A stretch of 62,917 nucleotides of DNA, counting the filler, from Circinaria calcarea (taxonomy: Eukaryota), in the NCBI GenBank assembly GCA_051942165.1. It is 6 parts of 6 records of this genome, joined end to end, with 100 filler letters (N's around TTAATTAATTAA, not from the genome) between each part and the next. Parts side by side here need not be neighbours in the genome. Positions count along the whole stretch, not along the records: positions 42,026 to 52,422 come from JAVECS010000812.1; 5 more parts are not named here. One strand, given 5' to 3'. The notes beneath the pieces were generated by a model. The model worked only from the letters and a program-made list of their open reading frames with translations. It was not told the origin of the DNA and did not search any database. This document shows positions 48,659 through 48,873 of this stretch, piece by piece. Within the stretch, counting starts at the first letter, position 1. Each line of letters opens with the position of its first letter. A program made the position numbers and the translations under genes.

Positions 48659-48873
48659 ATGAAGCTCATCGTCGCCTTTCTTGCTCTCGGCTTTATGGCC
48701 TCGGGGTTTGCCCTTCCAGCAGCACACCACCCTCCCAAAAACATGTTTCCAGAAGGCGAGCGTGAGTCTTTGAGATTATATGGTAGTCGAGAATAATTAT
48801 TAATCAAGTAGTAGTCCCCAAGATTTCGTCTCCTGAGCACGTCGATGTTACTTTGATCGGGGATGGTTATTAG
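48659..48873 (+). CDS. Small secreted peptide, candidate RiPP precursor (2 exons, ~54 aa): MKLIVAFLALGFMASGFALPAAHHPPKNMFPEGELVPKISSPEHVDVTLIGDGY
   Basis: ATG 48659 in ACAATG context; hydrophobic signal peptide with an A-LP cleavage pattern; GTGAGT donor at 48762, ATTAAT branch-like site, TAG acceptor at 48811 (48808 and 48814 give the same frame); stop TAG 48871-48873. Located between a DUF3328 gene and the O-methyltransferase gene. Confidence 0.7.

Follow-up and report, generated by a model that had tools for sequence, protein, structure and literature searches.

A conserved two-exon peptide gene from Circinaria calcarea as a candidate single-core precursor of a dikaritin-like RiPP

The closest described relatives of the locus that we report here are the clusters that make dikaritin-type RiPPs (peptides made by the ribosome and modified after translation). 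As described in PMC6514808, the ustiloxin precursor UstA carries 16 YAIG repeats that are flanked by KR and ED. UstQ, UstYa and UstYb are together essential for the first ustiloxin intermediate, yield it in A. oryzae and are proposed as the cyclization enzymes. The same source gives FYYTGY as the core of asperipin-2a, where the Tyr side chains form ethers to the beta-carbons of upstream residues, and describes a query with ustA combined with ustYa/ustYb as the way to the AprA-type precursor candidates. In this work, we describe a small two-exon gene at positions 48659-48873 of a 62,917-nucleotide stretch of DNA from Circinaria calcarea (assembly GCA_051942165.1; the whole stretch is called the window below). 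Judged by its conservation in other genomes, this is a real protein-coding gene for a predicted secreted prepropeptide of 54 residues. On balance, we favour the view that a five-gene unit makes a dikaritin-like RiPP from this peptide, a precursor with a single, C-terminally encoded core and no dependence on Kex2.

The search for dikaritin-type RiPPs looks for a signal peptide and for repeats delimited by Kex2 sites. A 2025 survey of lichen fungi used this filter, and its clans of clusters were searched for signal peptides, Kex2 sites and repeats (PMC12048977). In one of these, Clan R1 of the Parmeliaceae, a tyrosinase lies upstream of a UstY gene and an O-methyltransferase lies between two UstY genes. 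According to the survey, the precursor of Clan R1 was not found, and both a single core peptide and a location outside the biosynthetic gene cluster (BGC) were left open. The supplements list the signal-peptide proteins of the clans by identifier, without sequences. PMC12048977 gives the O-methyltransferase type as unreported in dikaritin clusters. The peptide described here is probably the starting peptide that this survey could not find.

The gene opens with an ATG at 48659-48661, with an A at position -3, and in the sequence read from 48300 to 49300 the frame remains open to 48761. Exon 1 (48659-48761, plus strand) has 103 nt, which is 34 codons plus 1 nt, and therefore ends in phase 1. It encodes a predicted signal peptide of 18 residues (48659-48712, plus strand), made up of MK, a hydrophobic stretch and G-F-A before LP, and then a leader with a conserved LP...MFP. 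The signal peptide was called with a heuristic rule, not with SignalP; its n/h/c layout and the junction between A and LP are kept across the 12 aligned members of the family. The predicted intron (48762-48811, plus strand) is 50 nt long, in phase 1, and runs from GTGAGT to TAG, with a TTAAT that matches the fungal YTRAY branch pattern. Three acceptors, AAG, TAG and TAG, stand in tandem and end at 48808, 48811 and 48814. The first and the last of these would give introns of 47 and 53 nt; all three are in frame with exon 1, so the C-terminus is identical whichever is used. Exon 2 (48812-48873, plus strand) includes the TAG stop codon at 48871-48873. It ends in a conserved block of 12 residues (48835-48870, plus strand), (D/E)-x-V-D-(V/I)-(T/A)-(Q/L)-(I/M)-G-D-G-Y, of which the Tyr is the last codon. 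This block is a candidate for the core plus its recognition part, and is longer than the IGDGY core that was suggested earlier.

An initial annotation of this DNA had read the locus as a two-exon candidate with a single terminal Tyr, no core repeats and no KR, RR or KK. The sequence read and an in-silico splice confirm this: the spliced product has 54 residues, no KR, RR, KK or RK, and a sole Tyr as the last residue. The annotation was also right that the unspliced frame ends early, at a stop codon at 48794-48796. The peptide has one core only; it has no coding tandem repeat, and no internal repeat is found in any family member. Two open reading frames (ORFs) of the signal-peptide type occur in the 63-kb window, against a mean of 0.03 by chance in 100 first-order Markov resamplings of the window with a simple signal-peptide rule that was tuned after the fact. 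One is the peptide gene. The other, at 42496-42594 on the minus strand, just downstream of the tyrosinase gene, was judged to be an artefact of a CA-rich repeat. The peptide ORF exceeds the chance expectation, and its conservation in other genomes is the stronger evidence.

To find related loci, we scanned metagenome contigs with the largest exon of the neighbouring O-methyltransferase (OMT) gene, which gave 25 loci. The OMT identity is 87% for L001-L006, 72-75% for L007-L010, 78% for the short L024 and 23-48% for 14 others. Two of the 11 loci with an identity of at least 72% (L005 and L024) end too early to contain the peptide gene. The other loci fall into two groups. Group A consists of L001, L002, L004 and L006, which are nearly identical, with L003 as a variant. 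Group B consists of L007, L008 and L009, which are 90-95% alike; L010 is 100% identical to L009 over 15,138 nt, and the two are counted once. A tblastn search with the spliced product located both exons in 9 of the 9 loci with room for them (L001-L004 and L006-L010), at the equivalent site, convergent with the OMT gene and a few hundred bases downstream of it. The search with both exons that the initial annotation had proposed finds them in related loci, beside DUF3328/UstYa and tyrosinase genes. Every copy has the ATG at the same place, an exon 1 in phase 1, a GTGAGT donor and an acceptor that restores the frame. The introns share one position, are 50, 52, 55 and 62 nt long and cannot be aligned, whereas the exons can.

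The pattern of change within the exons is that of a coding sequence. In an alignment of the whole 2.2-kb spacer between the OMT gene and the second UstYa gene (UstYa2), the two exons are the best-conserved island, with an identity of 0.70-0.72 to L006 and of 0.50-0.62 to group B, against about 0.1-0.45 for the rest of the spacer. The ratio of nonsynonymous to synonymous change (dN/dS, Nei-Gojobori), with synonymous sites saturated, is 0.16 between the window and L006 and 0.35 between the window and L008. The exon indels are all whole codons, and the differences between the window and L006 at codon positions 1, 2 and 3 number 13, 6 and 26. The antisense frames of the exons also show tblastx similarity, but they contain stop codons. 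Besides the two exons, the only tblastx or blastn match within the spacer is an 18-codon element at 48299-48352 that is common with L006. The element is short and non-coding and lies some 300 nt upstream of the ATG of the peptide gene. L006 is the only locus with which it is conserved (tblastx), and it could be a promoter element.

The family extends into protein collections. A first profile, built from the exon translations and one read-through ORF, led to two proteins, P0001 and P0002. A phmmer search of 1.84 billion representatives with P0001 gave three matches at E<=1e-3 (P0001 itself, P0004 and P0005), all of them family members. With a cleaner profile from a MAFFT alignment (A3), 17 proteins of 973 candidates reached E<=1. 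The unspliced ORF of 45 residues, used as a query against proteins of 24-79 residues, gave no candidate. GDGY is present in 16 of the 19 stored proteins and forms the C-terminal end in 15 of these 16. The last 12 residues of the 16 GDGY proteins occur in seven variants of D-x-V-D-(V/I)-T-(Q/L)-I-G-D-G-Y, with G-D-G-Y invariant; adding the window, L008 and a paralogue described below widens the pattern to (D/E)-x-V-(D/N)-(V/I/L)-x-x-(I/M)-G-x-G-Y. The leaders are far more variable than this end and are of three types, starting MKF, MHAQNI and MNFRLL. No KR, RR, KK or RK is found in the products of the window, group A and L008. KR, RR and KK are likewise absent from 13 of the 16 database proteins, with the exceptions lying in intron read-through or in the tail of P0014, and RK is present in one subfamily. 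Two members are named at NCBI: P0009 is the hypothetical protein HO173_010834 of Letharia columbiana (53 residues) and P0014 is MMC23_009855 of Stictis urceolatum. The nearest named relatives of the peptide come from lichen fungi. A full-text search of open-access papers and bioRxiv found no paper on this peptide family.

The terminal Tyr, which homologues were expected to keep, is present at the end of 15 of the 16 GDGY database proteins and of the products of the window, group A and L008. The only copies that break this rule come from clusters with broken enzyme genes, together with P0014, where RRR follows the Tyr. Splicing, for which the initial annotation had asked to see evidence, is suggested by the relatives. 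Family members of 45-53 residues occur alongside longer ones of 65-74 residues. Taking an internal insert of 18 residues out of P0013 gives P0015; the 30 residues ahead of the insert and the 22 behind it are identical. P0009 stands to P0011 as P0015 does to P0013. These pairs are most simply read as spliced and unspliced versions of one gene, both assembled, and so public assemblies appear to hold both forms of one orthologue.

What surrounds the peptide gene? Pfam was run on 131 of the 157 stop-to-stop ORFs of at least 90 residues in the window; the 26 omitted ones all overlap with ORFs that are larger, and the frames of several differ from those annotated. A tyrosinase gene (approximately 42841-44107, minus strand) has four exon ORFs, a PF00264 match at 43098-43511 on the minus strand and an N-terminal membrane anchor. 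The first UstYa/DUF3328 gene (UstYa1; 44667-45546, minus strand) also has four exon ORFs, with PF11807 at 44670-44966 (E 1.5e-15), the motifs HQLHC and HTSHC and an N-terminal transmembrane helix. UstYa2 (46320-47245, plus strand), 1.4 kb from the peptide gene, has a weak PF11807 match (46486-46860, E 6.5e-4), the motifs HQLHC and HADHC and an N-terminal transmembrane helix. Each UstYa gene therefore has two HxxHC motifs. The OMT gene (49430-50913, minus strand), convergent with the peptide gene, has four exon ORFs and a Methyltransf_2 match (PF00891 at 49646-50224, E 1.4e-21). Read by eye, the tyrosinase and both UstYa proteins start with a basic stretch and one hydrophobic helix, while the OMT does not and has no evident signal peptide.

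The flanking genes in the window are ordinary ones, coding for a kinase, for a coiled-coil protein and for a WD40 protein. No non-ribosomal peptide synthetase (NRPS) or repeat protein is found in the window, and no cytochrome P450, flavin-containing monooxygenase (FMO), pyridoxal phosphate (PLP) enzyme or radical S-adenosylmethionine (SAM) enzyme is among its Pfam-scanned ORFs. Between 41 and 53 kb, no transporter or peptidase was matched by Pfam in ORFs of at least 90 residues, where short exons could be missed. A canonical Kex2-repeat precursor was looked for in the same interval and ruled out, with no ORF that combines several dibasic sites with repeats and no coding tandem repeat. Further away, the window holds a 1150-residue open frame without a Pfam match (26673-30122, minus strand) and an NLR-like gene with NACHT/NPHP3_N and ankyrin domains (20978-24376, minus strand); another gene of the latter type adjoins the cluster in L006 (1662-3961, plus strand). 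Paired runs of 44 N's recur about every 10.5 kb (10422-10521, 20927-21026, 31428-31527, 41926-42025 and 52423-52522), one just upstream of the cluster and one downstream; they have the look of masks and not of biology.

The peptide gene travels with these enzymes. In the related loci the order is tyrosinase (-), UstYa1 (-), OMT (+), peptide (-), UstYa2 (-), exactly so in L001-L003, L006, L007, L009 and L010, and orthologous exons of the tyrosinase and UstYa2 are present. A UstYa gene also lies beside the peptide in L001-L004, L006, L007, L009 and L010; none was found on the short contig of L008. Compared with all of the related loci, the block of UstYa2, peptide and OMT is inverted as a unit (window 46299-50913, L006 9265-13855), while the orientation of the tyrosinase and UstYa1 is kept. 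No locus has a match to any of the four flank genes of the window (the kinase, the WD40 protein and the ORFs at 52.5 and 55 kb), although L006 reaches 10 kb to both sides. It is therefore only the five-gene unit, peptide included, that is common to the window and groups A and B.

A second pairing of this kind is seen in L007, which has a paralogous signal-peptide ORF of 65 codons that ends in M-G-A-G-Y (12927-13124, plus strand). This ORF is about 380 nt from a second, paralogous tyrosinase (13505-14408, minus strand), and proteins near-identical to it are found in NCBI/JGI/ENA (P0002 and P0003). At the same place in L009 (11171-14150) there is a 3-kb segment with an ORF for a Fung_rhodopsin-like membrane protein and a UstYa paralogue, without the peptide. 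Among the 14 distant OMT loci, tblastn gave no match to the peptide, and most of these loci are too short to judge. L016 is the only one of them with a tyrosinase and UstYa context; in L018 and L020 the OMT lies in an unrelated setting. L024 is a further rearranged copy: at 766-2032, OMT exon 3 follows tyrosinase exon 1 within about 100 nt, apparently without UstYa1 and the first OMT exons.

Gene decay in group B offers a natural experiment. In the window, L001, L002, L004 and L006, the conserved parts of the enzyme exons have no frameshift or in-frame stop, and the peptide is intact in all of them; the stops within some high-scoring segments fall in intronic or out-of-frame ends of the query ORFs. 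In group B the enzymes are decaying, and each of these three close genomes has lesions of its own. The HQLHC motif of UstYa1 has become HQLYC in both L007 and L009. In L007, tyrosinase exon 4 has also lost 1 nt, a deletion of 13 nt has taken away the second HxxHC of UstYa1, and UstYa2 contains a stop. In L009, 1 nt is inserted into tyrosinase exon 3 and UstYa1 contains a TAG. In L008, 570 nt including OMT exon 1 are missing and synteny is lost before UstYa2. The GDGY end of the peptide has been lost twice independently in this group, in two of the three genomes: L009/L010 carry GGA to TGA at the first Gly, and L007 has a 6-nt deletion of Asp-Gly together with a change of Tyr to Ile. A different kind of change is seen in L003, where the differences to L001 from about 12900 to 16500 or beyond are all C-to-T or G-to-A, with 8-27 of them in each 500 nt; three Trp-to-stop changes in UstYa2 result from them. 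The pattern resembles repeat-induced point mutation that spreads into the edge of the cluster, with the peptide gene just outside the tract.

If the peptide is the precursor that we favour, the following pathway can be proposed. Once the 50-nt phase-1 intron is removed, as the conserved exon borders and the relatives suggest, the predicted signal peptide would direct the product into the lumen of the endoplasmic reticulum and Golgi, which the anchored tyrosinase and both UstYa proteins should face, judging from their sequences. The leader, with LP...MFP and then an acidic S-S-P-D/E-x-V-D part, would present the C-terminal residues. The terminal Tyr may be hydroxylated by the tyrosinase, and by analogy with UstQ/UstYa/UstYb the UstYa pair might then make one or more ether cross-links from the Tyr-derived oxygen to an upstream beta-carbon. 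The O-methyltransferase would cap a remaining hydroxyl or carboxylate, and some protease would remove the leader. Because the core ends at the stop codon, neither a Kex2 cut nor C-terminal trimming would be required. The initial annotation had proposed just such an atypical single-core, dikaritin-like precursor; as far as sequence goes the proposal is supported, and all the in-silico checks that were run came out favourable.

Several observations weigh against this proposal or limit it. The precursor role is argued from gene conservation, from the place in the unit and from enzyme motifs, and the chemistry from analogy; likewise, the splicing of the window copy is deduced from conservation and from the relatives. 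The integrity of the peptide and that of the enzymes are not strictly coupled: the peptide is intact in L008 despite the deletion of OMT exon 1, and in L003 despite three Trp-to-stop changes in UstYa2. In L016, where a tyrosinase, an OMT (48% identical) and a UstYa gene follow each other, neither a signal-peptide ORF nor a G-x-G-Y end was found in the gap between OMT and UstYa. The OMT seems to be cytosolic, a compartment unlike that proposed for the oxidases. In L008 and the paralogue the Ile at position -4 is replaced by Met, so an ustiloxin-like Tyr-Ile ether at this position is not universal. P0014, an annotated Stictis model, has RRR and 20 more residues after the Tyr and is the sole GDGY protein that does not end there; the tail could be a follower that is removed at the basic site, or an annotation error. 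So conserved a core behind a variable leader is unusual for toxin-like RiPPs. Finally, the genomic context considered is that of the window and its related loci; the MHAQNI and MNFRLL subfamilies, like the other database proteins, come from protein collections.

Could the peptide be a bystander? It might be a real small peptide, conserved and secreted, perhaps a signal or an effector, that is no substrate of the neighbouring enzymes. The substrate of the cluster would then be encoded at another place, as a Kex2-repeat protein beyond the window would be, or would be non-ribosomal. We hold this to be the strongest competitor, though an improbable one. The evidence that links the enzymes to the peptide is all positional, and the intact peptides beside broken enzyme genes in L008 and L003, like the enzymes without a recognisable peptide in L016, are what such a peptide would lead us to expect. 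In addition, PMC12048977 notes DUF3328 proteins in non-ribosomal pathways such as that of cyclochlorotine, and itself offers a precursor outside the BGC as an option. Set against this, the peptide stays in the unit through an inversion and a change of flanks, its paralogue adjoins a second tyrosinase, and decay of the enzymes goes along with decay of the GDGY end. With a tyrosinase alongside, a terminal Tyr that never varies is in keeping with a substrate, and the window offers neither an NRPS nor a repeat protein in its place.

A further possibility is that the peptide is the substrate, but that nothing beyond its last one or two residues counts: the C-terminal Gly-Tyr would be turned into a small molecule of the catechol or quinone type and then cut off. 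Such a scheme recalls mycofactocin, which uses a C-terminal Val-Tyr, or pyrroloquinoline quinone (PQQ), which derives from Glu plus Tyr, more than it does a macrocyclic dikaritin. The core is in single copy at the extreme C-terminus, its G-x-G-Y is invariant even in the paralogue, and fungi of two orders (Letharia and Stictis) share a strongly conserved end behind leaders that vary. Catechol chemistry needs a tyrosinase and a phenol-type OMT, and both are present. Pulling the other way, conservation spans 12 residues and not two, and the pair of UstYa oxidases, each with both HxxHC motifs intact, speaks for the cross-linking of a peptide, as in the known dikaritins (PMC6514808). We regard a Gly-Tyr product as unlikely. 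Just as speculative is an extension of it, in which the GDGY peptides are no precursors of a variable toxin. Each would serve as a scaffold, and on its C-terminal Gly-Tyr a tyrosinase, UstYa oxidases and an O-methyltransferase would build a single conserved small molecule. Such a molecule would be a eukaryotic counterpart of peptide-derived cofactors or signals like mycofactocin and PQQ; it would be kept in two or more orders of lichen-forming fungi and could have to do with lichen life.

That there is no gene here at all, only an ORF and a GT...AG that arose by chance, or else a non-coding element under conservation (the 3' region of the OMT gene, or a promoter), is very hard to credit: the failed search with the unspliced ORF and the similarity of the antisense frames could be cited for it, but the low dN/dS and third-position bias, the conserved ATG, stop and intron phase, the stops in the antisense frames and the 15 database proteins that end on GDGY, among them contiguous ORFs of 45-53 residues and an NCBI gene model, all speak for a gene.

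The precursor that we favour has some practical consequences. It is a concrete and conserved candidate of an architecture other than the one that has been mined for, with one core, no Kex2 site and a core that ends at the stop codon. A peptide gene that is both very short and split by an intron is one that gene callers often miss, or read through. Related clusters can be sought with a simple pattern, a signal-peptide ORF that ends in G-x-G-Y beside a UstYa gene. If the candidate is confirmed, the chemistry of UstYa proteins and tyrosinases is not restricted to repeat precursors.

How does the locus compare with known systems? In its architecture, the peptide recalls MftA, the precursor of mycofactocin, which is short and has one conserved core per gene, at the extreme C-terminus and ending in Tyr. 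MftA is bacterial, lacks a signal peptide and is modified by a radical-SAM enzyme; unlike that system, the present one has no radical-SAM enzyme among the Pfam-scanned ORFs, and its peptide has a predicted signal peptide.

In its gene content, the locus resembles the ustiloxin cluster, which has the precursor UstA, the tyrosinase UstQ, the DUF3328 proteins UstYa/UstYb and the methyltransferase UstM. In both, a single cluster combines a precursor that is secreted with one tyrosinase, a pair of DUF3328 oxidases that carry HxxHC motifs, and one methyltransferase. The methyltransferase here is of the O-type (Methyltransf_2) and not an N-methyltransferase, and the P450, FMO and PLP enzymes have no counterpart. 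Like UstA (PMC6514808), the peptide has a Tyr in a conserved core with an aliphatic residue nearby. Unlike UstA, it has a single core without repeats or KR, placed at the stop codon, and its Tyr comes last and not first. The statements of the initial annotation about UstA and PhomA, and its asperipin-2a core, agree with that source; that AprA itself carries repeats is stated by the initial annotation. Asperipin-2a (AprA/AprY) shares with our peptide a core that ends in G-Y, and since its Tyr residues form ethers to upstream beta-carbons, a cross-link from a C-terminal Tyr back upstream has a precedent. The four-gene cluster given for asperipin-2a in PMC6514808 lists no tyrosinase or methyltransferase, whereas the unit described here has a tyrosinase and an OMT and a single core.

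A further match is Clan R1. Its gene set and order are those of L001-L010, and the window, a candidate member, has the same genes with one block inverted. The FGE-sulfatase that is conserved in Clan R1 (PMC12048977) has no Pfam match in the window ORFs of at least 90 residues or within 10 kb to either side in L006. As for the five-component definition of a dikaritin cluster quoted in the same survey, the locus has a tyrosinase and multiple two-motif DUF3328 genes, while a transporter or peptidase is not among the matches. A methyltransferase is present, of the O-methyltransferase type (PF00891). The peptide is not a Kex2-processed repeat protein (KEP), having no repeats separated by KR. Compared with precursors of the UstA, PhomA and AprA type, it has the signal peptide, by the heuristic rule, and a UstYa/DUF3328 neighbour, and lacks tandem cores and flanking Kex2 sites. 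The peptide would act like a dikaritin precursor without two of the defining features, the repeats and the Kex2 sites, and is better called a single-core, C-terminally encoded variant.

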